The notes under the pieces: model-generated
Told to the model about the DNA's origin: nothing
Databases searched by the model: none
The model's input: the letters and a program-made list of their open reading frames with translations, nothing else
Position numbers and translations under genes: made by a program
Part shown: piece after piece, positions 10,792 to 48,877 of the stretch
Numbering within the stretch: position 1 is the first letter of the stretch
Layout: every line of letters starts with the position of its first letter
From: Bacillota bacterium
Lineage (GTDB): Bacteria > Bacillota > Clostridia > Christensenellales > UBA1242
Length of the DNA stretch: 64,000 bases
Reading direction: 5' to 3'
Assembly (NCBI GenBank): GCA_009784185.1
Contig: WRCD01000002.1
Span: 53,384 to 117,383, forward strand

Positions 10792-13500
10792 ATGGCTTTT
10801 TTAGGAATATTTGCCTCAGACAATGAGCGCGCGCTGAAGCAGGTTGAAAAAACTGCGCAAAAAATAGAAGCGCTTTCTGATAAATACAAGGCAATGAATG
10901 ATACCGAGCTGAGAGCAGTTACGCCTGCGCTTAAGGCTAGGCTTGAGGCGGGTGAAACATTAAACGACATCCTGCCGGATGCCTTTGCCGCAATCCGCGA
11001 AGCCAGTGTGCGTGTTATAAATCAGCGCCCTTTTCATAGTCAGGTTGTGGGCGGAATTGTGCTGCATCAGGGCAGAATTGCCGAAATGAAAACAGGTGAA
11101 GGTAAAACGCTGGTGGCAACTCTGCCGGCTTATTTAAACGCGCTTGCCGGCAAGGGAGTGCACGTAGTTACGGTAAACGAGTACCTGGCCGGCCTTGCTG
11201 CAGAATGGATGGGTAAGATTTTTAAATTTATGGGGCTTAGCGTTGGCTGCAGCTTTAGTCAGATGGACCCTATGCAAAAGCGGGATGCTTATGCCTGCGA
11301 TATTACTTATGTAACAAACAGCGAACTCGGTTTTGACTATCTGCGTGATAACATGGCGCAAAAAGCCCAGGACAGAATGCAGCGCGGGTTTAGTTTTGCT
11401 ATTGTTGACGAGGTGGACAGCATTTTAATTGATGAAGCCCGAACCCCGCTCATTATTTCCGGCCGCGGCTTTAAAAGCAGTGATACGTACACTAAGGTTC
11501 AGCGGTTTATAAAAACCTTAAAGCGCGATACCGACTACAAGGTGGACGAAGAGAAAAAAGCAATTCACTTAACCGAGGACGGGCAGGAGCGGGCAGAGCA
11601 GCATTTTGGAGTTGAAAGCTTAAGCGACATGAATGCAATGGAGCTTAACCAGCATATTATGAACGCCTTGCGAGCTAACTACATGATGCGCCGTGAATCG
11701 GATTATATTGTAAAAGACGGCGAGGTTCTGCTGGTAGACGAGTTTACCGGCCGTATTATGGACGGCAGGCGGTACTCCGACGGTTTGCATCAGGCAATTG
11801 AGGCCAAGGAAGGCGTTCAGGTAAAAGATGAGCTGCTTACGGTGGCAAGTATTACTTTACAGAACTATTTCAGAATGTATAAAAAACTATCGGGCATGAC
11901 CGGTACCGCCAAAACCGAGGAAGGCGAATTTAACAAGATTTACGGCTTGGACGTTGTTAGTATCCCGACCAACCTGCCAATGATAAGAGTAGACGAACCC
12001 GACATTGTTTATGTAAACACAGCGGGCAAGCTGAAAGCTATTGTTAACCGTATTGAAGAAGCACATACAATAGGGCAGCCGGTGCTGGTTGGCACAACAA
12101 CAATTGAAAAATCCGAAGAAATTAGCAAAATGCTGAAACAAAAGAAGATTCCGCACCATGTGCTTAACGCAAAGTACCACGAACAGGAAGCTGAAATTGT
12201 GGCACAGGCCGGAAGACACGGCGCGGTTACAATTGCTACAAACATGGCGGGCCGTGGTACCGACATCCTGCTTGGAGGAAATCCCGACTTTCTGGCTAAG
12301 CAAAGCATGATAAAATCGGGCTATAATCACGCTCAGATTGAGCTTGCAAGCAGTTATCACATTGAAGCGGCCACAGACGAAACCAGAAAAGCAAAAACTG
12401 ACTTCGGTTCGGCAATAAAGAAGTTTTCATCTGAAACACAGGAAGAAAAGAAACGGGTAGTTGAAGCGGGCGGATTGCTTATAATCGGTACCGAGCGCCA
12501 TGAGTCCAGGCGTATAGATAACCAGCTAAGGGGGCGCGCAGGACGTCAGGGCGACCCCGGCAGAAGTGTATTTTACATTTCGCTTGAGGATGACCTTATA
12601 AGGCTTTTTGGAGGCGACAGGCTTAAAAGCATATCCGGGTTCTTCAGGCTTGATGAAGACACGCCGTTTCAGATTAAAATGCTTAGTAAGCAGATAGAGA
12701 ATGCTCAGAAAAAGGTTGAGGCCAACCATTACGGCATGCGCAGACGGCTGATTGAATACGATGACGTTATGAATAAACAACGCAGCCTGATATATGAGCA
12801 GAGAAATAAGATTCTGGACGGGCACGACGTGCACAGCGAGATTGTAGATATGTTCCCCGATATTGTGCGCGAGACAATTTACAAGGCTATTGATACCGAT
12901 AAGCCTAGTTTTGAGTGGAATTTAGACGAGATTAACGACACGCTTGAGGATAAGATATTCAAAAAAGGCACACGTTTTATAACCGAGAAAGACATTGAAG
13001 ACACCGACGAACATGAGCTGGTTGATAAAATATTAGACTATATTAATACCCAATACGAAACCAAAATAAAAGAAGTTGAAGAGCTTGGTATTAAGCATGA
13101 TATGATAGAGCGGTTTATTTTGCTTAGCAATGTTGACCGGGCATGGATGGAGCATATAGACGCCATGACAACTCTCAGGCGCGAAATCGGCACATTAGCG
13201 CACGGAAACCAGGACCCGATTGTTGCATATAAGCGCGAGGCGTTTAGTAAGTTTGATGAGATGATTGCTAAAATCCGCGAGAATACCGCAACCGTGCTGT
13301 TGAACCTGGAAAAGCCAACGGTTACGGTTACGCCGGCTGCTCCGCGCCCGCCGATGCAGAATTTGCAGACAGGAACCGAAACCATGCGCGGCGAAACTCC
13401 GCGGGTAGCCAAAGGCCCAGCTAAAAGTGATAAGCTAACCGGCAGAAACAGCCCATGCCCGTGCGGCAGCGGAAAGAAGTATAAAAACTGCTGCGGCTAA
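10792..13500 (+). CDS. secA: Preprotein translocase subunit SecA
   Basis: MKTGEGKT, DEVDSILIDEARTPLIISG, IDNQLRGRAGRQGDPG, C-terminal CPCGSGKKYKNCC; start at ATG after AAGGAG. Confidence 0.98.
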   Translation: MAFLGIFASDNERALKQVEKTAQKIEALSDKYKAMNDTELRAVTPALKARLEAGETLNDILPDAFAAIREASVRVINQRPFHSQVVGGIVLHQGRIAEMKTGEGKTLVATLPAYLNALAGKGVHVVTVNEYLAGLAAEWMGKIFKFMGLSVGCSFSQMDPMQKRDAYACDITYVTNSELGFDYLRDNMAQKAQDRMQRGFSFAIVDEVDSILIDEARTPLIISGRGFKSSDTYTKVQRFIKTLKRDTDYKVDEEKKAIHLTEDGQERAEQHFGVESLSDMNAMELNQHIMNALRANYMMRRESDYIVKDGEVLLVDEFTGRIMDGRRYSDGLHQAIEAKEGVQVKDELLTVASITLQNYFRMYKKLSGMTGTAKTEEGEFNKIYGLDVVSIPTNLPMIRVDEPDIVYVNTAGKLKAIVNRIEEAHTIGQPVLVGTTTIEKSEEISKMLKQKKIPHHVLNAKYHEQEAEIVAQAGRHGAVTIATNMAGRGTDILLGGNPDFLAKQSMIKSGYNHAQIELASSYHIEAATDETRKAKTDFGSAIKKFSSETQEEKKRVVEAGGLLIIGTERHESRRIDNQLRGRAGRQGDPGRSVFYISLEDDLIRLFGGDRLKSISGFFRLDEDTPFQIKMLSKQIENAQKKVEANHYGMRRRLIEYDDVMNKQRSLIYEQRNKILDGHDVHSEIVDMFPDIVRETIYKAIDTDKPSFEWNLDEINDTLEDKIFKKGTRFITEKDIEDTDEHELVDKILDYINTQYETKIKEVEELGIKHDMIERFILLSNVDRAWMEHIDAMTTLRREIGTLAHGNQDPIVAYKREAFSKFDEMIAKIRENTATVLLNLEKPTVTVTPAAPRPPMQNLQTGTETMRGETPRVAKGPAKSDKLTGRNSPCPCGSGKKYKNCCG

Positions 13501-13968
13501 ATTCCCCTCTATAAGAGGGGTGGCGGCGGAGCCGACGGGGTGTGGATGAAAACAGAAATGCAAAACAATAAAAACTCTGATTTGCCTTGTAATATAGAAC
13601 TAAAGAAACTAGCCTCCGAGTTAAGAAAGGCAGGCAACTTGTCGGAGGCTTTGTTGTGGTTGCAAATAAAGAACCGGAAGCTTAAAGGGCTGTGCTTTGA
13701 CAGACAAAAAGTTATTGGTAATTATATAGTGGACTTTTACTGTGCGGACAAAAGAGTTGTAATTGAAATTGACGGCACAACACATGATTACAAATATGAG
13801 TACGATAAAGAACGAGATGAATATTTGAAAAGTTTTGGATTGAAGGTTGTTCACATCTTGGATATAGATGTTAAACAAAATTTGGCGGGCGTGATGCAAT
13901 TTTTGGAGGAGAATATATAATTTGTATCCACACCCCGCCCTGCGGGCACCCCTCTTATAGAGGGGAAT
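13501..13968 (+). mobile_element. Putative element: DUF559 endonuclease gene bracketed by inverted family A repeats
   Basis: The left end (13501-13547) and the reverse complement of the right end (13926-13968) share an identical outer 22 bp (ATTCCCCTCTATAAGAGGGGTG) and inner 12 bp (CGGGGTGTGGAT). Confidence 0.7.
13546..13920 (+). CDS. DUF559 (Vsr/PD-(D/E)xK-like) endonuclease domain protein
   Basis: ELRK..SEALLW, RQKVIGNYIVDFYC, VIEIDG..H, YDKERDEYL..GLKV. Confidence 0.9.
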   Translation: MKTEMQNNKNSDLPCNIELKKLASELRKAGNLSEALLWLQIKNRKLKGLCFDRQKVIGNYIVDFYCADKRVVIEIDGTTHDYKYEYDKERDEYLKSFGLKVVHILDIDVKQNLAGVMQFLEENI

Positions 13969-13986
13969 CTTTTGTTAGGTTGTTGT

Positions 13987-28400: not shown

Positions 28401-29162
28401 AGCCGTATGAACGTAGGGCAGATGCTGGAGTGTCATTTGGGGCTTGTGGCAAAAACTCTTGGCTGGAAGGTAGCCACTCCGGTTTTTGACGGAGCAAACG
28501 AGCGGCTTATTCAGGAACTGTATAAAGAAAACAGTATGCCGCTTGACGGAAAGATGCAGCTCTTTGATGGGCGTACGGGTGAGGCGTTTGAAAACCGCGT
28601 TACGGTTGGATACAAATATATGCTTAAGCTTGACCATATGGTAGACAGCAAAATGCACGCAAGAAGCACCGGACCGTATGCGCTGGTTACCGCTCAGCCG
28701 CTTGGCGGAAAGGCCATGTTTGGCGGACAGAAGTTTGGTGAAATGGACGTATGGGCGCTTGAAGCGTATGGCGCAGCAAGCTTGCTGCAGGAAATGCTTA
28801 CGGTTAAGAGTGACGACATTGCGGGCAGAACAAAAGTATACGAAAGTATTGTTAAGGGTCAGCCGATTGCCGAACCGGGCATACCCGAGAGCTTTAAGGT
28901 ATTGATAAAAGAATTGCAGAGCCTGGGGCTGGATATGAGGATTTTAACCGAAGACAGCCGCGAAATTGCAATTACCGAGCTGACTAACGATGAGGTTGAT
29001 ATAATAATACCTCAGGGCAGACGAGAGACAAAAGAAAAAGACTTAGACTTAGACTTTACAGCGGCTACGGAAAGCAATGACATTGTAAGCAAAGATGAAT
29101 ACGAAGCAGAGCAAGCGGACGCGTTTAGCGCGGGCAACCTGTTTGATGACTTTGATGAATAG
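25449..29162 (+). CDS. rpoB: DNA-directed RNA polymerase subunit beta
   Basis: [46 protein letters not shown]. Confidence 0.99.
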
Positions 29163-35892: not shown

Positions 35893-36071
35893 GCTGGACA
35901 GAAGTCAAGAGTTGTAGGTGCACAAAGCAAAATTACCCAATTCCTTCGGGGCGGAAAGACGGAGTAACAGCGGTCAAAGAAGAGTCCGTGCTGTTGGCCG
36001 CGGCAAGGCCGCGACTAGCCGCTTGGCGTTAGCCGAGCGCAAAAAACAAGTACAATTCATATATGTTTTGT

Positions 36072-37043
36072 ATGAAACACAACCAGTTAGAGCAACAGAT
36101 TTTAGAGTTCAAAAACTCCGGCATCAAAGTGTTCAGCATCGGTAAGTCTGTGCTGGGAAGAAACATCTGGTGCGTGGCGGTGGGGAGCGGTGAGCCAAGT
36201 GTCATCATTCAATATGCTATTCACGCCAGGGAGTACATAACTGCTTATTTGGCGATAGAGCATATCAAACTTTCGTTTGGCTACCCCGTCTGTCTCGCTG
36301 GCGCAAAATCTAACCATTGCCATTGCGAGACGGCACCAATAATTCCCCTCTTGAGAGGGGTGGCACGAAGTGACGGGGTGTGTTTAGCGAAGCAATCCCT
36401 TGGGTTGGGTGCAATTTACTTTATCCCATGTGCTAATCCCGATGGAGTTGCTCTTGCGCTGGATGGAGGAAGTGACTTCAGCCTATGGAAGGCAAATGCA
36501 AATGCTGTTGACCTTAACCGCAACTTTGATGCCAAATGGGGACAGGGTACGGACAATAAGTTTGAACCAGCCTCAGAAAACTATATTGGCAAACACGCTC
36601 ATAGCGAGCCGGAGACCAGGGCACTGGCGGAATTTACCTTAAAAGTAAAACCCAAACTTACAATCAGTTATCACTCCAAAGGAGAGGAAATATATTACGA
36701 GTTCGGACAAACAGGCGTTCGCCTGGAGCGGGATAGGAAAATAGCGGAAGCTATATCCGGCATAACCGGCTATACAATTAAATCCACGCCCGGCAATACC
36801 GGAGGCTATAAAGACTGGTGTATGCAAAAATTAAAAATCCCCGCCTTGACAATTGAAGTTGGTAATGATATTCTTAACCACCCGATAGGAGTGGAACACC
36901 TGCCGGAAATTTTAGCCCAAAACAAAAATGTGCCGGCAAAGGCACTGGATATTGCAAATAAAATTCCCCTCCTTGGAGGGGTGCCCAAAGGGCGGGGTGG
37001 TTTAAAAAGGAGAAAGCAATGGAAAACGAGAAAGCATTATTAA
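36072..37043 (+). CDS. M14 family zinc carboxypeptidase (gamma-D-glutamyl-mDAP peptidase-like), with repeat-derived segments
   Basis: GKSVLGR, HAREYIT, NPDG, VDLNRNF, SEPET, SYHSKG, TIEVG. Confidence 0.88.
   Translation: MKHNQLEQQILEFKNSGIKVFSIGKSVLGRNIWCVAVGSGEPSVIIQYAIHAREYITAYLAIEHIKLSFGYPVCLAGAKSNHCHCETAPIIPLLRGVARSDGVCLAKQSLGLGAIYFIPCANPDGVALALDGGSDFSLWKANANAVDLNRNFDAKWGQGTDNKFEPASENYIGKHAHSEPETRALAEFTLKVKPKLTISYHSKGEEIYYEFGQTGVRLERDRKIAEAISGITGYTIKSTPGNTGGYKDWCMQKLKIPALTIEVGNDILNHPIGVEHLPEILAQNKNVPAKALDIANKIPLLGGVPKGRGGLKRRKQWKTRKHY
36319..36398 (+). repeat. Family A unit (36341-36382) nested inside a family B unit, inside the M14 CDS
   Basis: GCCATTGCGAG...[AATTCCCCTCTTGAGAGGGGTGGCACGAAGTGACGGGGTGTG]...CGAAGCAATCC. 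Confidence 0.85.
36962..37000 (+). repeat. Family A singlet forming the C-terminal codons of the M14 gene
   Basis: AATTCCCCTCCTTGGAGGGGTGCCCAAAGGGCGGGGTGG. Confidence 0.85.
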
Positions 37044-37480
37044 CAGACCCGGAAGTTAAACCAACAAACAAAATTATAGCCGCAGGTCTTGGCGGGGCAA
37101 GTGCGGCATACAACAACTTTCTTAGCGGGCTAAACGTACAGGACATCTCGCTTATGGAATGGCGGTACTATAACGACGGCAAGGCGTGGCTCTCTAAAGG
37201 CGAATACAAATGGACGACCCCGCGAGGGGCAAACAAGGTAAAGCCGCTGTTTTGGCTTTCCATCTGGGAAGGGTTTTTTAAAACGGCGTTTTTCTTTTCG
37301 GAGAAGCTTAGAGGGGACTTGCAAAACTTGCCATTAAGTAAAGAAACAAAGGAATTGATAGCAAACACCAAGCCAATGGGCAAAACAATGCGGTTTCTTC
37401 CGGTTGTGCTGGATATAAAGAGTGAAAAACAGCTTGCGGATGTTTATATGCTTGCGGAATTTAAAAAAGCCCAAATTTAA
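37019..37480 (+). CDS. DUF3788-like protein
   Basis: LLTDPEVKPT, EWRYYNDGKAWL.K, FWLSIWEG.FK; AGGAG SD. Confidence 0.7.
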   Translation: MENEKALLTDPEVKPTNKIIAAGLGGASAAYNNFLSGLNVQDISLMEWRYYNDGKAWLSKGEYKWTTPRGANKVKPLFWLSIWEGFFKTAFFFSEKLRGDLQNLPLSKETKELIANTKPMGKTMRFLPVVLDIKSEKQLADVYMLAEFKKAQI

Positions 37481-37491
37481 AGGGGAGAACT

Positions 37492-38298
37492 ATGGAAAGG
37501 AAACAGGAACAACTTTATTATAAAAACAAGAAACACATTGCATCAAGGGTGCAAAAAGAGCCGCAGCCTGATGAGGACAAGATTTTAGCATATCTTAAAA
37601 GCGGCAATTGCTTCGTAGCTTCGCCTGGAATTGCTGATGATATTTTTGCGCCTGAAAAACGCATTCTTGGCCCGTACTGTTATACCGATGGCGAGTGGGA
37701 CTGGGACAGTGCGCTAGTCTATTACATAGAAAACTACCACTTCAGAATCTCAGACGAATTTCTTGCGCATATAAAGGCTAAAAACTGGAAGTGTCATAGA
37801 ATGTCAAAAAAAGAGATATATGGATTTTGCAAGGCAGATTATATGGAAACATTAATGCGTATAGCTCTTGTTGAAGCCAAAAAGGCTGCTGCTGCCGACG
37901 AAGTGCCGGTGGGTGCTGTGGTTGTTAGAGACGGAGAGATTGTTGCGCGGGCACATAACTGTAAAATAAAAAACAACTCGGCATTTGCGCACGCCGAGCT
38001 AATAGCAATGACCAAAGCCGCAAAAAAACTGGGGGATTGGCGCCTTAACGAGTGTACGCTTTTTGTAACGTTAGAGCCATGCCCCATGTGCGCGGGTGCA
38101 ATAATAAACGCCAGAGTAAAGGAAGTGGTGTTTGGGGCATACGACCCCAAAGCCGGCTGCTGCGGCACGCTGTATAACTTGCCGGAAGATAAGCGCTTTA
38201 ACCACCGAGCAAAAGTAACCGGCGGAGTGCTGGAAGAAGAATGCGGCAGGATACTGACAGAGTATTTTAAAACGAAACGGAAAAATTCCCCTCTATAA
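37492..38298 (+). CDS. tadA: tRNA adenosine(34) deaminase TadA with an extra N-terminal domain of about 117 aa
   Basis: EVPVGAVVV, AHAEL, VTLEPCPMCAGA, YDPKAG; TadA core begins at ATG 37843. Confidence 0.88.
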   Translation: MERKQEQLYYKNKKHIASRVQKEPQPDEDKILAYLKSGNCFVASPGIADDIFAPEKRILGPYCYTDGEWDWDSALVYYIENYHFRISDEFLAHIKAKNWKCHRMSKKEIYGFCKADYMETLMRIALVEAKKAAAADEVPVGAVVVRDGEIVARAHNCKIKNNSAFAHAELIAMTKAAKKLGDWRLNECTLFVTLEPCPMCAGAIINARVKEVVFGAYDPKAGCCGTLYNLPEDKRFNHRAKVTGGVLEEECGRILTEYFKTKRKNSPL

Positions 38299-38328
38299 GA
38301 GGGGTGCCCGCATTGGGGCGGGGTGTGG
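38284..38328 (+). repeat. Family A singlet; supplies the tadA stop codon and is the left bound of the cargo block
   Basis: AATTCCCCTCTATAAGAGGGGTGCCCGCATTGGGGCGGGGTGTGG. Confidence 0.88.
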
Positions 38329-38521
38329 GCAATTGAGAATAAAATTCGTAGGTCAGAAAGACCCTGCTAATGGTGGTGAAAATGAGTAAAAAACCACAGG
38401 ATGCGTGGGGAAAAGTGGCAAATTTCAGCCCACCTACGAACTTAATAGTTCATACGACTAATTCACTATGCACCCACAATATGGCAACCGCATACTGCCA
38501 CAATATCAAAAGGAGAAAAAT

Positions 38522-39091
38522 ATGACTGAAATTTGTTATCAAGTTTTTGAAACAGTGGATGCTGTAAAAGAAAAGCTGAGAGAGGCTGGTTTCATTTTTT
38601 CTGAGTCATACGATAACCACGATTCATATTTCACGAGATTTGGCAAAGAAGAAGCGAAAAATCTTGAATATAAAAAATTGTTGGATAGTTCATTAATTGT
38701 TCGCTGGATTAAGAGTGAAAACTGGGAAGTGAAAAACATTCTTCATAAGACAAGAATTTTAGATAAAAAAGGGAATGTTATTAGTGAAGAAAAAACCAAG
38801 ATAGCTTGCAGTGACACAATTAAAGCTAAAATGATTTTTATTGATGCGGGTCTTAATTGTTGGTGCGATTTTGTTGTTCAAAACAATGAGTACAAAAAAG
38901 ACGATATTATTATAAATCTACAAGTTGTTGACAATTTAGGTGTGTTTATTGAAATAGAAGAATGCGATTCTATAAAAAACTATTCAGATAATGCTAAGTT
39001 GTATTACTTAAAAGAAATCATACAAAAGTTAAAAATAGAAACGGGAGAAGACTTCAGTTGCAAAAAACCCTATATGTTTCTGAACAGATGA
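38522..39091 (+). CDS. CYTH-domain (adenylate cyclase/triphosphatase-like) protein
   Basis: D.YF, LIVRW, EEKT, VVDNLGVFIEIEE; start after AAGGAG; AT-rich. Confidence 0.7.
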   Translation: MTEICYQVFETVDAVKEKLREAGFIFSESYDNHDSYFTRFGKEEAKNLEYKKLLDSSLIVRWIKSENWEVKNILHKTRILDKKGNVISEEKTKIACSDTIKAKMIFIDAGLNCWCDFVVQNNEYKKDDIIINLQVVDNLGVFIEIEECDSIKNYSDNAKLYYLKEIIQKLKIETGEDFSCKKPYMFLNR

Positions 39092-39093
39092 AA

Positions 39094-39156
39094 CCACCTT
39101 ACCAATCGACCTACTTCAGGGCAGTCACCCTACCAATCGACCTACGGAAACAGTTG
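39094..39156. repeat. Family D cassette-boundary motif, two tandem copies
   Basis: CCACCTTACCAATCGACCTAC and CACCCTACCAATCGACCTACGGAAACAGTTG. Confidence 0.8.
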
Positions 39157-39310
39157 AAGACAAAGTTCGACAAAAAATTTGACGCAGCATGTAGTGGAGG
39201 AGAGAAAAAATGAAACACAACATACAGGGGTTGAAAAGTGGATTACACAAACTCTGCACTCCTTGCCGGAAAAGTGGTATACACCAGCGATATGAAAAGG
39301 GAGAAAACAT

Positions 39311-40156
39311 ATGAAACTAATTGGTGAAGGACGAGAAAGTAGTGCTTATTTTCTTGATGGTAAAACAGTTTTGTTGGTAGGGAAGAATAAAACTGCCATA
39401 GATAATTACAAAAAGCAAAAAACAATCTATAACATACTTGATGGCAAAGTCAAATGCGTAAAGATTCCAGAGAATGCTAATCTAATTGAACCATGCGAAA
39501 AGCATCCTTTTGGTGCTATGACAATTTCATATGTAGCGGGGGAGCCGTTAGATATAAAAGTTTTAACAGACGAACAAAAAATTAAAATAGGAAAACAAAT
39601 TGCACAGTTTGTTTATGAGTTTCAAAAAGTTGGTGAAAAACTAGGCAAAGAAGAGATAAAAAAGCTTCAAGAAATACAAATCAAAACAGATGCCAAAGCC
39701 GTAAGAGAATGTTTAGAACTTGTTAAGGTGCACTTTAGTGACGACGAGTATAGCAGGCTTGTAGAAGTTGCAAAACGATATAATGCAAAAATTAAGAATC
39801 GAACGCATATTTTACATCAAGGCGATTTGGGCGGCAGTAATCTTCTGACTGACAAAGACAGAAACCTTATCGGTATAATTGACTTTGAAGAAGTTGGTTT
39901 TTATATTCCAGAATATAAATTTAAGGGTCAGGGTCTTAGGAAAGATAAAATATTGTTCGATTCCTTGGTAAAGGAGTATCACAAACTTAGCGGGATACTT
40001 GTTAATGATACGGACTTTATGGATGTTTGTGAAATTATAACAATGATTTTGCATCTAAGACGTTTTTATTGTCTTGGGAGTCCTCAAATAGAAATGAGAG
40101 TAGGGATAATTAAAAAACTGCTGCAAGATTATTTTAATGGTGCGGTGGTAAAATGA
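39311..40156 (+). CDS. Aminoglycoside phosphotransferase (APH)/kinase-like protein
   Basis: IGEGRES glycine-rich loop, HQGDLGGSNLL, GIIDFE. Confidence 0.85.
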   Translation: MKLIGEGRESSAYFLDGKTVLLVGKNKTAIDNYKKQKTIYNILDGKVKCVKIPENANLIEPCEKHPFGAMTISYVAGEPLDIKVLTDEQKIKIGKQIAQFVYEFQKVGEKLGKEEIKKLQEIQIKTDAKAVRECLELVKVHFSDDEYSRLVEVAKRYNAKIKNRTHILHQGDLGGSNLLTDKDRNLIGIIDFEEVGFYIPEYKFKGQGLRKDKILFDSLVKEYHKLSGILVNDTDFMDVCEIITMILHLRRFYCLGSPQIEMRVGIIKKLLQDYFNGAVVK

Positions 40157-40165
40157 AATTACACA

Positions 40166-40197
40166 AATCAACCTGTGGAAACAACTTGTTGCACGCG
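40166..40197. repeat. Family D cassette-boundary motif
   Basis: AATCAACCTGTGGAAACAACTTGTTGCACGCG, 9 nt after the stop codon. Confidence 0.75.
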
Positions 40198-40242
40198 CCA
40201 AGAATGAAACATTAGCGCGAGAAGAATATTTAAAATGGAGGA

Positions 40243-40938
40243 ATGCAAGAAATGGTTGATATAAAAAAGCTTATAACTGAACTTGAAAACGACAATTTAG
40301 AGAAAGTAGACAGAAAATATTTTACACAAACTCAAATGGAGCGGGCAGCTTGTTGGGGCTACCCTAAAGGCCTTAGAATAATTAAGAGGTTGCTCAAATT
40401 GGGGGTTATTAAAAACATTAAACCCGGGTATGCACATTATGAAACGACTAAAAAATTTGAAACTTGGCAGGCAAGTATTATTGATATGGTTGCCAGTCTC
40501 TTAAGCGTACATTTTGGTGAACATAAGAGAATAAGCAGCAGTGCATATACAGCATTGAGGTCAGAAAAGGCTAAAATTTATGAATTTAATACCAAACTTG
40601 TTATAACCGGAGAACGGTATATGTTTTCGCTTTATCTAACGGAAGATGAAGAGGGTTGCAATTTAGAATTTCCGCTGTGGACAATGGAAGCTGACGGGTA
40701 TAGCATTGATATTGACAAACTGTCTGATAACAGCAGAAATTTGTTTGATAAGATACTGGATTTTCATAGTATAGATTTGGATGATATTAAAGGTTTATAT
40801 TACATAGCTTCACCTATTCAAGCCAATGCAATGAATGTGAGGCATGTTGTTTCAAGGATGTTATCGGTTGTTTTATTCTTGCCTGTGCTTGAAAACGGAG
40901 AATTTGAGGCAGTAGACCGGAAAAGACAAAAAGCCTAA
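40243..40938 (+). CDS. Hypothetical protein
   Basis: 231 aa AT-rich ORF with GGAGG SD (start could be ATG 40252). Confidence 0.7.
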   Translation: MQEMVDIKKLITELENDNLEKVDRKYFTQTQMERAACWGYPKGLRIIKRLLKLGVIKNIKPGYAHYETTKKFETWQASIIDMVASLLSVHFGEHKRISSSAYTALRSEKAKIYEFNTKLVITGERYMFSLYLTEDEEGCNLEFPLWTMEADGYSIDIDKLSDNSRNLFDKILDFHSIDLDDIKGLYYIASPIQANAMNVRHVVSRMLSVVLFLPVLENGEFEAVDRKRQKA

Positions 40939-40946
40939 ATAAATCG

Positions 40947-41017
40947 CAGCCCACCTTGCCAATCGACCTGCGGAAACAACTTGTCGCACGCGGGCACCCC
41001 TTTGGAGAAGGGGAATT
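40947..41017. repeat. Family D motif joined to a partial reverse family A unit (right bound of the cargo block)
   Basis: CAGCCCACCTTGCCAATCGACCTGCGGAAACAACTTGTCGCACGCG followed directly by GGCACCCCTTTGGAGAAGGGGAATT. Confidence 0.8.
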
Positions 41018-41058
41018 TTGGCTTGACTATTTCCTTGCAGTTATGCTAAACTCTCTAC

Positions 41059-41880
41059 ATGGAAAAGTTGGTTTTAAGTGAGCAGGTTGAGCGGGCGCTT
41101 GATATTGAGCCCCGGTTTGCCGTACAAAAAGAAATACTGGATGATGATGTTGCGGTGATAATTTTAAAAACGCACAATCCCGCTTTTGGCATATCCGGCA
41201 AATCATATGAAATTAAGCTCTGGGGAAGAACCAGCTATGAGTGGCTGGCTCTGGCCTTTGATATGTGCCCGATTGAGTATATAGAGTGCGGTATGGAAAG
41301 CGATATATTAACCGTAATTAAGCCGCATTTAACGGACAAGAAATACACAGCAGTGTTTTATGCTGATACTCCGCTAATTACCCGCAAAACCTTTTTATCT
41401 ATCATGGACTATGTAAAAACAAAACGCCTGAATGTGGCAAAGCTCCCAAGAGGTTACGTTTTTGTAACCGATTTTGTGCGCGGGGCAAGTAATATATATT
41501 CTAATCAGAGTATTTACTCGGACGAAGCTGAGTTTATGCCGGTGCTGAATCTGAACAGCTTAGCAGAGGCAAGCAAGGTGCTTCATGACAGGATTATTGA
41601 ATTTCACCGGGGCAGCGGTGTTTTGATTGTTGACGCCGCTTCCGTCTTTATTGATGCGGATGTAATAATCGGCAGGAATACTGTTATAAATCCAAACAAT
41701 ATTATCAGCGGCCTCTCCGTAATTGGTGACAGTGTTATGTTAAACTCCGGCAACAATATAATTAACAGCAAGCTCGGTTCAAACGCAGTTGTAAGCTATA
41801 GCGTAATTGAAGGCTCGGTTATTTTGCCCGCCGCCGTGGTTTTGCCTTTTACACATATAATCGGAGGCAAAAAGAAGTGA
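41059..41880 (+). CDS. Degenerate, short GlmU-like protein
   Basis: YADTPLIT, GVLIVDAASVFIDADVIIGRNTVINP hexapeptide start; syntenic with pth; lacks the LAAGxGTRM motif. Confidence 0.75.
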   Translation: MEKLVLSEQVERALDIEPRFAVQKEILDDDVAVIILKTHNPAFGISGKSYEIKLWGRTSYEWLALAFDMCPIEYIECGMESDILTVIKPHLTDKKYTAVFYADTPLITRKTFLSIMDYVKTKRLNVAKLPRGYVFVTDFVRGASNIYSNQSIYSDEAEFMPVLNLNSLAEASKVLHDRIIEFHRGSGVLIVDAASVFIDADVIIGRNTVINPNNIISGLSVIGDSVMLNSGNNIINSKLGSNAVVSYSVIEGSVILPAAVVLPFTHIIGGKKK

Positions 41881-42398
41881 AACTGATAGCAGGACTTGGC
41901 AACCCCGAACCCAGATTTAACGGCACGCCTCATAATGTAGGCTTTGCCGCGATTGACGTTTTATGTCAGCGGCTGGGAGTTAGCAAAACCAAACACAAAA
42001 AGGGCGCAGAAGTGATTTTTGCCGAATACGAAGGCGCAGAATTAATATTGGCAAAGCCGTTAACCTACATGAACTTAAGCGGGCTAAGCATAAGAAAACT
42101 GGTTAAAAAATACAAAATTGCATTAAATGACATTGTGGTTCTGGTAGACGATATTAGCGTAAAGCCGGGCCAGGTAAAGCTTAAAGAACAGGGGAGTGCA
42201 GGAAGCCACAACGGTTTAAAAAACATTGCGGCCGAACTTAACTCGCTGGATTTTAAGCGCCTTAGAATTGGTGTGGGTGAGCCCGCGCCGGGGCAGGACT
42301 TAAGTGATTATGTTTTGGGCAAGCTTCCCGCAGGGATAAAAGCACAAGTTGAAGAGGGAATCTGCCTGGCGGCGGATTTGGCTTTAAAACAAGTTTAA
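41877..42398 (+). CDS. pth: Peptidyl-tRNA hydrolase
   Basis: LIAGLGNP, HNVGF, KPLTYMNLSG, GSHNGLK, RLRIGVG. Confidence 0.95.
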   Translation: MKLIAGLGNPEPRFNGTPHNVGFAAIDVLCQRLGVSKTKHKKGAEVIFAEYEGAELILAKPLTYMNLSGLSIRKLVKKYKIALNDIVVLVDDISVKPGQVKLKEQGSAGSHNGLKNIAAELNSLDFKRLRIGVGEPAPGQDLSDYVLGKLPAGIKAQVEEGICLAADLALKQV

Positions 42399-46878: not shown

Positions 46879-46910
46879 CTAGCGGAAATTTTCAAAATGT
46901 GGTAAAATGT

Positions 46911-47822
46911 ATGAGTATGGAAAAGATAGTGCAACAAATCATAGAACAGCATCAAGAGTTATTTGGTACACAGCCTGCAGTCAGCAAAATAAACGCAGGT
47001 TTTACAAATACAATTTTTTCAGTAGCGGATAAGTTCATTCTGAAAATTTGCCATGATGCCGGCAACGAAGAAGAGTTTGCAGTAGAAATAGATTTTTATT
47101 TGAGGAACAAGGAAAAGCCTTATATGCTAGAACTGCTTGCTTATTCGACTGACAAGACGAAATCTCCTTTCTATTACACAGTGATAGAAAAAGCGAATGC
47201 ACCATCGTTATACGACATTTGGCATACATTCACGGAAGAGCAAAGAGAAGAAGTTGTTTGTAAAATCTGCAACATTATGAAAGACTTCCATAAACACAAA
47301 GGAAAGTCGTTAAACTGGGGTGAGTACATTAAAGGATACTACGAAGAACACCTTGCCGTTTTGATAAAACAAAAACAACTTACGGAAGATGAGATTTTGC
47401 TTGTGCGAGAAGCAATGGAAAAGTTTGGTTTTTACCTTAAAAGCAATGACTTCGTTTTAATTCATAATGATATGCATTTCGATAACATTTTTTACAAAGA
47501 CGGTAACCTAAAACTCATCGACTTTGAAAGTAGCAGATTCAATCCAGTAGATAAGGAACTTGAGATAATTTATTACATGGCTGAAATGCCGTGGAAACAT
47601 GCCAGTGAAGAGAATGAGAAGTTTGTAAAGGCGGAAGACTACACAACACTTATCCATTACTTCAAAAAGCATTACCCAGAAATGTTTGATGTTCCATACT
47701 TGGAAAAGCGAATAGCTATCTACCACTTGCGAGATGCCTTAGACCAGTACGGAAGATTTACAAAGGCAAATGAACTGCACGAACGGATAATCAAACTGTC
47801 AAGATTTATAGGTAAAGAATAA
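46911..47822 (+). CDS. Aminoglycoside phosphotransferase/choline kinase-like protein
   Basis: GFTN, ILKI, HNDMHFDNI, LIDFE; start may be 46917. Confidence 0.85.
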   Translation: MSMEKIVQQIIEQHQELFGTQPAVSKINAGFTNTIFSVADKFILKICHDAGNEEEFAVEIDFYLRNKEKPYMLELLAYSTDKTKSPFYYTVIEKANAPSLYDIWHTFTEEQREEVVCKICNIMKDFHKHKGKSLNWGEYIKGYYEEHLAVLIKQKQLTEDEILLVREAMEKFGFYLKSNDFVLIHNDMHFDNIFYKDGNLKLIDFESSRFNPVDKELEIIYYMAEMPWKHASEENEKFVKAEDYTTLIHYFKKHYPEMFDVPYLEKRIAIYHLRDALDQYGRFTKANELHERIIKLSRFIGKE

Positions 47823-47949: not shown

Positions 47950-48877
47950 GTCACGGGGACGGAGGTGTTGACACAGAAAACAGTTGACAACGTCCACAAA
48001 AACTCTTACAATCTAAATTGTAGGAGTTTTTGTTTATGCCAAGGAAAGCAAGAAAAGATACAGATGGAAAGTTTTTCCATGTAATGGTGCAGGGGATTGG
48101 TAAAGAATATATTTTTCCTGATGACGATTGCAAAGGCTATTATCTATCCTGTTTGAAGAAAAGTAAAACCAAGCTTCCCGCTAAAATACTTGCTTATTGC
48201 GTGATGGGCAACCATGCGCATGTTTTGGTGAGTGTTCAAAATGCGCAGGAGCTAGCTTTGTTTTTAAGGCAAGCAAACGGAGATTACGCCAGATATTATA
48301 ACAACACTCGCAACAGGGTGGGCTACGTGTTTAGAGACAGGTATCGGAGCGAAGTGATTCAAGATGAGCGATATTTAATACATTGTGTGGCATACATACA
48401 CAACAACCCGTTAAAGGCGGGGTTGGTGGAACGTGCAGAAAACTATAAATATTCAAGCTATGTTAATTACTTAACCAAGAAGGGCATGGTAGATTTTGAT
48501 GAGGCGGCTAAGTTGTTTGATACAAGTGAGAGAAGCATGAGAGCTATCATGTTGGAAAAAACCGGAGCGAACTGGCTGGAGCATGACGACAAAGAATATG
48601 AAGACAAACACAAAGTATTGACTGAATTAATAAAAAAGTATAATATATCGTCAAAGGCATCGGTTAGAAACGAAGAACTTGCTAAGGCGCTGACTATGGA
48701 GTTGCAAGAGAGAAGCGGTGTCAGTTTGCGGGAAGTCGCAATATTATTGGAGGTTAGCCGAGAATGGTTAAGAAGAGTTGTGTCAACACCCCCGTCCCCC
48801 TGACCATCCCCGTGACCACCCCCGTCCCCCTGACCATCCCCCTGACCACCCCCGTCCCCCTGACCATCCCCCTGACC
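47950..48877 (+). mobile_element. RAYT-like Y1 transposase element with 25-bp inverted ends and a tandemly amplified right end
   Basis: 47950-47974 and 48780-48804 are inverted repeats (23/25 match); a 30-bp unit is repeated three times at 48787-48876. Confidence 0.8.
48036..48803 (+). CDS. REP-associated tyrosine transposase (IS200/Y1_Tnp HUH family)
   Basis: MPRKAR, FHVMVQG, AYCVMGNHAH (HUH), GYVFRDRYRS, YIHNNPLKAG, YKYSSY, C-terminal HTH. Confidence 0.92.
   Translation: MPRKARKDTDGKFFHVMVQGIGKEYIFPDDDCKGYYLSCLKKSKTKLPAKILAYCVMGNHAHVLVSVQNAQELALFLRQANGDYARYYNNTRNRVGYVFRDRYRSEVIQDERYLIHCVAYIHNNPLKAGLVERAENYKYSSYVNYLTKKGMVDFDEAAKLFDTSERSMRAIMLEKTGANWLEHDDKEYEDKHKVLTELIKKYNISSKASVRNEELAKALTMELQERSGVSLREVAILLEVSREWLRRVVSTPPSP

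Follow-up and report, generated by a model that had tools for sequence, protein, structure and literature searches.

We analyzed a three-gene block at positions 38284-41017 of a 64,000-nt stretch of a Bacillota genome (G000:C2:53384-117383, hereafter the window, whose coordinates are used for the block throughout), which lies between tadA and a GlmU-like hexapeptide gene and is enclosed by inverted copies of a short hairpin repeat that we call family A. Comparison with the corresponding junction of relatives shows that the block is an insertion bounded by its family A ends, and each of its three genes is followed by a copy of a motif that is confined to the block. With a confidence that stays somewhat short of an even chance, we favour a reading in which a family A copy at the 3' end of tadA holds, at its centre, three unrelated and horizontally acquired single-gene modules, the motif copies being scars or handles of serial short-homology joining.

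The source assembly (1.16 Mb, 19 contigs, 44% GC, 94% complete) is the single genome of its genus in the collection, and cassette number and order are accordingly not comparable between close relatives. Depending on the test, relatives comprised 400 family genomes, 18 same-family genomes or 12 same-order genomes, as stated below. Mobility and variation were checked on the assembled contigs of four metagenome runs, in which rare variants may be hidden; in three of these runs (X2-X4), stretches without contig cover are uninformative. The stretch itself is present in public runs labelled as termite gut metagenome.

The block as an insertion between tadA and a GlmU-like gene

In three of the four same-family loci retrieved, tadA lies directly beside the GlmU-like gene, the gap between the two open reading frames (ORFs) being 2 nt in G018 and, according to tblastn coordinates, about 12 nt or less in G008 and G004; in G021, tadA is followed by pth. 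In the window, the present stop codon of tadA sits in the loop of the left family A hairpin; with positions 38288-41017 removed on paper, the tadA frame reads on to a TAA at 41047-41049, which precedes the ATG of the GlmU-like gene by 9 nt. Because this removal restores the compact junction of the relatives, the outer family A ends mark one insertion footprint. None of the 10 related loci recovered carries a homologue of any of the three genes at this interval.

The base composition of the block sets it apart from its surroundings, with a GC content of 0.29-0.37 within it versus 0.41-0.51 outside, and a GC content at third codon positions (GC3) of 0.27-0.32 in the three genes versus 0.46-0.50 in the flanking genes. 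The connectors between the modules have GC contents of 0.43 (IG0 and IG1) and 0.38 (IG2). Judged by composition, IG0 and IG1 are thus host-like and the three genes foreign. At donor-like loci carrying homologues of gene 1, the intergenic DNA is, by eye, very AT-rich, and the host-like GC of IG0 and IG1 therefore argues against wholesale import of the genes plus their spacers from such an AT-rich donor. Six low-GC islands were found in the genome, of which this block alone has family A on both sides.

The family A pattern matches at 38284-38311 (+ strand) and 40990-41017 (- strand) with 0 mismatches each, and 7 times in the window versus 0.00 expected. The original prediction, whose coordinates proved right within a few bases, had described inverted family A ends enclosing three co-oriented AT-rich genes, and this description holds, all three ORFs lying on the + strand with low GC. 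A family A unit consists of AATT, a CCCC...GGGG hairpin and then TGCCCGC, and the inverted arms of the block extend over 30 nt with 80% complementarity. The left half is complete, its inner half being present, and is laid out as in 59 short elements found elsewhere in the genome; the reverse unit on the right is indeed partial, as had been noted (Table 1). The flanks AA/AATT...AATT/TT are common to the 59 short elements and the block, and neither shows any duplication beyond AATT. Read on the + strand, the right end presents a hairpin (40997-41013) followed by AATTTT and is terminator-like, a feature that the left unit does not have on this strand. Directly against the right family A end lies the last motif copy, and three nucleotides (GCG) at their joint fit either sequence.

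Table 1. Features of the block and of its flanking genes (window coordinates)
Feature	Position	Strand	Remarks
tadA, left flank	37492..38298	+	Pfam deaminase families, E 9e-42
Left family A half	38284..38330	+	AATT, hairpin 1 (38288-38304), hairpin 2, GGGGTGTGG (38320-38328)
Stem-loop in first connector	38339..38446	+	closed by TTCGTAGGT/ACCTACGAA; holds the partial fifth motif copy
Small ORF, 51 aa (47 aa from 38382)	38370..38525	+	TGA overlaps gene 1 ATG (ATGA)
Gene 1, CYTH-like/class IV adenylate cyclase-like, 189 aa	38522..39091	+	GC3 0.28; ORF start 38468/38522
Two small ORFs, 39088-39213 (41 aa) and 39210-39314 (34 aa)	39088..39314	+	ATGA-chained between genes 1 and 2
Motif copies A1 (39095-39114, truncated) and A2 (39126-39152)	39095..39152	+	31 nt start to start
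Gene 2, APH-family (aminoglycoside/choline kinase-like) phosphotransferase, 281 aa	39311..40156	+	GC3 0.27
Small ORF, 20 aa	40153..40215	+	overlaps gene 2 stop (ATGA)
Motif copy B	40157..40197	+	inside the 20-aa small ORF 40153-40215
Gene 3, orphan, 228 aa	40252..40938	+	ORF start 40243/40252
Motif copy C, longest	40941..40992	+	abuts right family A end
Right family A end	40990..41017	-	ends after 28 nt of half; inner half missing
GlmU-like hexapeptide gene, right flank	41059..41880	+	directly adjoins tadA in relatives

Gene 1 gives a full-length but weak match to TIGR00318 (E 4.4e-9, 36.4 bits, under the 57.95-bit cut-off), and its 50-54% identical homologues carry PF01928. Gene 2 matches the Pfam APH family above its cut-off (E 5.7e-10, 39.8 versus 23.2 bits). 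Gene 3 has no family match in the profile libraries; word-based and exhaustive HMMER searches returned the protein itself and one marginal 71-aa match (E 5.8e-4), an Atlas search gave no usable match, and its AlphaFold2 model (mean confidence score pLDDT 39.7) is unusable. Its start at 40252 agrees with a GGAGG at 40237-40241 and with the length of the database record. PADLOC had no match in the region, a comparison with PHROGs gave nothing under E 0.08, and tblastn of genes 1 and 3 against phages returned no match for either, a search that did not extend to gene 2 or to the plasmid collection.

We then asked for the company that these genes keep elsewhere. Homologues of gene 1 were examined at 19 loci with 33-54% identity (Clostridia metagenome-assembled genomes (MAGs), Candidatus Onthoplasma and Christensenella sp. 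MAGs), and at none of these loci were gene 2, gene 3, tadA or the GlmU-like gene present within 4 kb, nor the motif at 4 or fewer mismatches; a sample of 150 genomes of the order yielded no gene 1. Gene 2 has homologues of at most 54% identity in 8 of the 400 family genomes, one of them with two in-frame stops, and neither gene 1, gene 3 nor the motif lies near any of the 8 loci retrieved, the homologue of G002 standing in another genomic context. In the genomes examined, genes 1-3 are thus not linked to one another outside the block, and this lack of linkage fits a separate acquisition of the three genes. The original prediction that genes were added singly at a repeated site is supported as far as separate acquisition goes; that they would have been added one at a time is a part of it that we retain in the conditional.

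A boundary motif confined to the block

As had been predicted, each of the three stop codons is followed by a motif, 27-41 nt in length, of which we count four copies (39095-39114, 39126-39152, 40157-40197 and 40952-40992); its core starts 10, 7 and 20 nt past the stop codons of genes 1, 2 and 3, respectively, as counted on the sequence. Its 20-mer has 3 matches at 3 or fewer mismatches versus 0.00 expected in shuffles, and its 5' half likewise has 3 (39095, 39126 and 40952) versus 0.00 expected. The motif is placed non-randomly relative to gene ends and, as described above, none of the 10 related loci carries the genes, so that the refuting test set in the original prediction did not go against it. 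The copies at 40166 and 40961 have 32 nt in common with 91% identity. The copies are nested in extent: A1 comprises the core alone, A2 the core followed by GGAAACA, and B the 3' part of the core with 14 further nt, and copy C has its core in common with A1 and A2, its 3' part with B and its 5' 16 nt with a fifth, partial copy (38420-38445) upstream of gene 1, whose similarity to copy C is limited to these 16 nt. Counting this partial copy, each gene has a motif copy on both sides. Two further details of the original prediction were borne out: the window contains the 10-mer CAGCCCACCT at two places and no others (38426 and 40947, versus 0.08 expected), and the inverted pair at 38345/38432 is real, spanning 38339-38353/38432-38446 (15 nt, 87% complementary). 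The first connector folds at 38299-38440 with -43.8 kcal/mol (z -2.24), without a corresponding Rfam family.

The motif is absent elsewhere in the genome, all its copies being confined to 38420-40992. Among the 400 family genomes, an 18-nt degenerate pattern had no exact match outside the source genome and 14 one-mismatch matches, whose flanks have no similarity. Three public collections were searched with the 20-mer: genome_contigs and viral_contigs gave 0 matches each, and the single match in metagenome_contigs, inside a high-GC coding region, was set aside as chance. The folds of 39085-39200, 40150-40245 and 40930-41025, considered on both strands, were not better than shuffles (z +1.52, +0.35 and -1.55), no structure is common to the motif copies, and the motif is not palindromic. 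A derivation of the motif from the ancestral tadA/GlmU-like junction was rejected, given no similarity to the junction in three relatives. That the motif codes for a peptide family has low odds, similar small frames being absent near the gene 2 homologues and elsewhere in the genome and the changes in a relative from run X4 being mostly non-synonymous. We also rejected the idea that gene 1 was cut at the motif junction; the C-termini of its homologues vary, and some end at the same place.

An array of this layout calls to mind integrons. Arrays of integron cassettes are also found as CALINs, clusters of attC sites without an integrase, and an attC site is imperfectly palindromic, its fold being a hairpin with bulges. 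The block resembles such arrays in that its unrelated ORFs are co-oriented, tightly trimmed and apparently promoterless, with a recurring site after each. A site-specific system of this kind, in which the motif would be where a recombinase encoded elsewhere takes up and releases gene-plus-site circles, would explain why each unit consists of one co-oriented ORF and one site 7-20 nt past the stop codon, why a copy stands on both sides of every gene, and why promoter-like sites are not in excess in the block (13 versus 11.4 expected); several tyrosine recombinase genes are indeed present on other contigs of the assembly. The matches to PF00589, however, are on contigs C3, C4, C8 and C16 only, and none is on C2, the contig of the block. 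No IntI was found in the 94%-complete assembly, the best match to TIGR02249 reaching 32.9 bits against a cut-off of 265 bits. The motif regions have no attC-like fold, the copies vary in extent and have no single core with fixed edges, and no wider cassette pool is visible in the genome, the 400 family genomes or the three public collections. The site of the block is thus conserved in sequence and not in structure. We therefore regard an integron-like system as very improbable, and of the earlier comparison with an integron array lacking its integrase, the ORF-plus-site layout is upheld and the membership is not.

The original prediction had further pointed to repetitive extragenic palindromes (REPs), since the motif starts with GTAG on its minus strand, and the window holds a gene for a Y1 transposase (Y1_Tnp, 257 aa) at 48030-48803, resembling the REP-associated tyrosine transposases (RAYTs). 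REPs and the bacterial interspersed mosaic elements (BIMEs) built from them are, like the motif, short extragenic repeats located just 3' of genes. In contrast to them, the motif is neither palindromic nor dispersed but confined to one 2-kb stretch; the dispersed palindromic repeat of this genome is family A, and neither family A nor the motif flanks the RAYT-like gene. A spread of the motif as a REP-type repeat by a RAYT is hardly credible on this evidence, and the search for a recombinase or RAYT flanked by the motif came back empty, there being no recombinase on the contig and no motif beside the RAYT-like gene. The block is neither an integron nor a REP. Around the RAYT-like gene, the GC content is 0.33-0.39 over most of 46.5-49.5 kb, and an APH-family kinase-like gene (46899-47822, 307 aa) adjoins it.

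Family A elements and their cargo

A genome-wide scan gave about 307 family A units. Fifty-nine convergent pairs, 106-195 bp in length, have a common plan of hairpin 1, hairpin 2, GGGGTGTGG or GGGGTAGCC, a variable centre of usually about 70 nt, and the mirror image of the first half. The family A pattern has 145 matches in the source genome and 0 in 18 same-family genomes, and three one-mismatch matches lie within 2 of the 12 same-order genomes. By these sequence patterns, family A is a nested palindrome resembling a MITE (miniature inverted-repeat transposable element) that underwent a lineage-specific burst. An Rfam search of 37400-42000 returned one sub-threshold match only, on the family A hairpin. 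Within the window, units stand at 13500, 13949, 15629, 20659/20758, 32849, 34000/34085, 36341, 36962, 38284, 40997 and 56980. Two of them (36341-36360 and 36962-36981) lie within a 326-aa frame at 36063-37043, two stretches of which match Peptidase_M14; the gene may carry the repeat in frame or may be broken, and contig depth peaks at this frame because of the repeat.

Besides the 59 short elements, we found 20 further convergent pairs of 237-2896 bp, 15 of which keep both inner halves and which look like elements split at their centre by an insert. According to the names read from their translations, the inserts include four intact DUF559 genes, a helix-turn-helix/pentapeptide-like gene and multi-gene blocks. 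The intact DUF559 genes (Vsr-like nuclease fold, 120-137 aa) exactly fill the centre of complete family A elements, namely at 13500-13969 of the window and at C3:52888-53391, C4:108206-108763 and C16:6902-7361 of the same genome; there are 7 DUF559 matches genome-wide, one of them broken by a stop, and DUF559 occupies the family A centre in four to six copies. Two possibilities are that this is the autonomous form of family A or that it is a homing-type nuclease gene targeting the palindrome centre. Another pair, of 547 bp (C1:54450-54996), encloses a 160-aa frame whose translation, by our own reading, resembles the N-terminal portion of an MnmE-like tRNA-modification GTPase, so that its cargo would be a host gene fragment. 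A family A pair enclosing DNA is a recurring architecture in this genome, and the proposal that the block is a cargo-loaded element of the DUF559 type is supported at the level of architecture.

The same architecture raises the possibility that a loaded element transposed, the family A ends being recognised in trans and the whole 2.7 kb moving as a MITE-bounded composite. The outer ends and flanks of the block are those of the 59 short elements, its removal on paper restores a compact gene junction, and other family A pairs hold cargo, all of which this explanation would predict. The block, however, is single-copy in the genome, its right end has no inner half, and no transposase is tied to family A, the DUF559 genes coding for nucleases and the sole Y1 (RAYT-like) gene having no family A unit within about 7 kb; no unit was found between 41017 and 56980. 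On balance, we consider transposition of the loaded element improbable.

The IMU (integron mobilization unit) of Enterobacter cloacae is a MITE-bounded composite element (PMC3184786). The block is similar in that two inverted short non-autonomous repeats bracket a few kb of cargo and the repeat is abundant as a short element. It differs in that a single element, divided at its centre, supplies both ends in place of two whole MITEs, and in that one half is truncated, the cargo is no integron, no transposase is known and the block is single-copy.

A second array was found between family A halves at C8:28010-30403. Its three genes are likewise co-oriented; the same 34-nt terminator hairpin comes after every one of them (28080, 28973 and 29706), and in front of two of them stands one and the same promoter, which has a poly-G spacer and 8 copies genome-wide. 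A 19-nt stretch, read as the start of one array gene, is duplicated at 28901/29668; if a circle and the array underwent one crossover, a duplication this long, covering the terminator plus the 19-nt stretch, would be left behind. The eight copies of this strong promoter-like module (C1:151758, C1:204953, C1:207130, C3:127763, C3:22707, C8:30310, C8:29625 and C12:5894) consist of a TTGACA box, a TATAAT-like box and a spacer holding a run of about 9-12 G, and several adjoin a family A half. Changes in the length of the G-run would alter the spacing of the boxes, suggesting possible phase variation.

These arrays may be compared with the PeSLs of T4-type phages, promoter plus stem-loop cassettes that are reported to mediate modular shuffling and form mini-circles (PMC2839356); PeSL regulatory cassettes are also treated in PMC4122927. 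The likeness to the block lies in a short conserved sequence bordering each non-essential gene and in repeat recombination as a way for modules to be gained or lost and for small circles to arise, and the difference in that PeSLs combine a promoter with a terminator stem-loop and are many per genome, whereas the motif of the block has neither and occurs in one array. The C8 array, with its repeated promoter and terminator, is much closer to PeSLs than the block is. With MITE-bounded cargo such as IMU (PMC3184786) and repeat-mediated modular arrays as the known kinds, we file the block as a variant of these. Among the papers listed by literature searches on DUF559 with inverted repeats and on MITEs of termite gut and reduced genomes, none describes such an element, which is weak evidence of its absence in print.

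Proposed stepwise assembly of the block and its alternatives

Gene gain is commonly regarded as a rare event in the reduced genomes of gut symbionts and, where it happens, as the work of classical integrases. For the block, we propose a model in which one family A element at the 3' end of tadA would have had its usual centre replaced by three foreign modules, joined by connectors that each carry a copy, differing in extent, of one sequence of about 50 nt. The nested copies would be junction scars or handles left by serial short-homology joining and not dedicated recombinase sites, and the joining could have followed either Campbell-type integration of circles or template switching in repair at the palindrome centre. 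The block most likely works today as a promoterless extension of the tadA transcript, on which the short overlapping frames would pass ribosomes on to the next gene and transcription would end at the right family A hairpin; five ATGA overlaps in series lead from a small frame through gene 1, two further small frames and gene 2 to a last small frame. What we infer is how the events followed one another, how the modules were joined, and that the genes are co-transcribed and coupled in translation. Because the genes are unlinked elsewhere, IG0 and IG1 are host-like and the motif copies are nested, stepwise assembly at a reused site is the best and most economical reading, and a motif found in the block alone and bordering three imported genes looks like a scar left by capturing genes step by step. 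In run X4, the match of a 789-nt contig, 86% identical to the block over 39151-39288, starts at the 3' edge of motif copy A2, which, in this one contig, fits the motif as a module boundary.

Several observations weigh against stepwise assembly in place. Because convergent pairs of family A units at 200-3500 bp (20) are rarer than those in the other orientations (++ 28, -- 30 and -+ 63), enclosure alone is not statistically special. The truncated right half agrees with an island that arrived within or next to a resident MITE, accompanied by a deletion, as well as it does with a loaded element that moved. The ATGA chain is weak evidence, requiring no more than an A before each TGA, and the changes of the X4 relative in the small frames are mostly non-synonymous, which makes coding by the small ORFs at 39088-39314 doubtful. 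No empty site, module loss or circle junction was seen in the contigs of the four runs, and no contig joint crosses the block or runs between motif copies; each of the joints listed for these contigs includes a family A repeat, the sides being 20-37 nt long. Pieces from runs X2 and X3, which belong to two studies and have 2-3x depth, are identical to the block over 38297-38447 and 39745-40242, so that the block looks fixed where visible. No enzyme for the joining was identified, and assembly could have taken place in a donor of similar composition instead of in place.

Some of these points would equally be expected if a ready-made three-gene operon, put together on, for instance, a phage or plasmid of the same lineage, had landed once, en bloc, in or beside a resident family A element, with the motif kept for a role in the operon, as a regulator site or as coupling frames. 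An imprecise insertion would leave a truncated right half, the pieces of the block recovered from the two low-coverage runs show no variant, the ATGA overlaps that chain all frames suggest an operon tuned for coupling, and, by our own reading, copies A2 and C differ in three places, each of these changes being synonymous in one frame. Copy B, however, differs from the other copies by non-synonymous changes in every frame, again by our own reading, and the X4 relative points the same way. The genes are moreover unlinked at all 19 loci of gene 1 homologues and all 8 loci of gene 2 homologues, the phage searches described above are without a match for genes 1 and 3, the motif is absent from the genome, viral and metagenome collections, and two connectors are host-like in GC where the genes are not. 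Arrival of the block as one operon thus appears unlikely, and serial joining of separate modules is the reading that we retain.

A broader version of serial joining, which we offer as a speculative and improbable extension, would make family A an integrase-free platform for gene capture, in which the centre of the long palindrome is broken or cut, perhaps by the DUF559 nuclease, and foreign ORFs or pieces of host genes are stitched in via short templated repeats. If this were true, the stitches would be the nested motif copies in the block and the repeated terminator in the C8 array, and a reduced genome of 1.2 Mb would have a new way to collect and express single foreign genes. The lineage-specific burst of hairpin repeats (about 300 units in 1.16 Mb) seems to supply landing places for genes, and in at least two cases the centre of a split element is occupied by a small array of unrelated single genes that has its own repeated boundary sequence. 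Should the joining mechanism be shown, it would be a route to building cassettes independent of integron integrases and a bacterial counterpart of the modular shuffling of T4-type phages; otherwise, the block is still a clean example of MITEs marking, and perhaps causing, small insertions.

Two of the other low-GC islands of the genome were read as lying beside tyrosine recombinase genes, one starting about 0.4 kb and one ending about 0.5 kb away. The first of these, a 13-kb island (C3:78973-92038, GC 0.31), starts about 0.4 kb from the tyrosine recombinase gene at 79425-79967, and a 35-nt tRNA-like sequence is present in two copies (78973 and 79205) beside its start. In contrast to the block between tadA and the GlmU-like gene, it looks like a classical integrase-mediated island.

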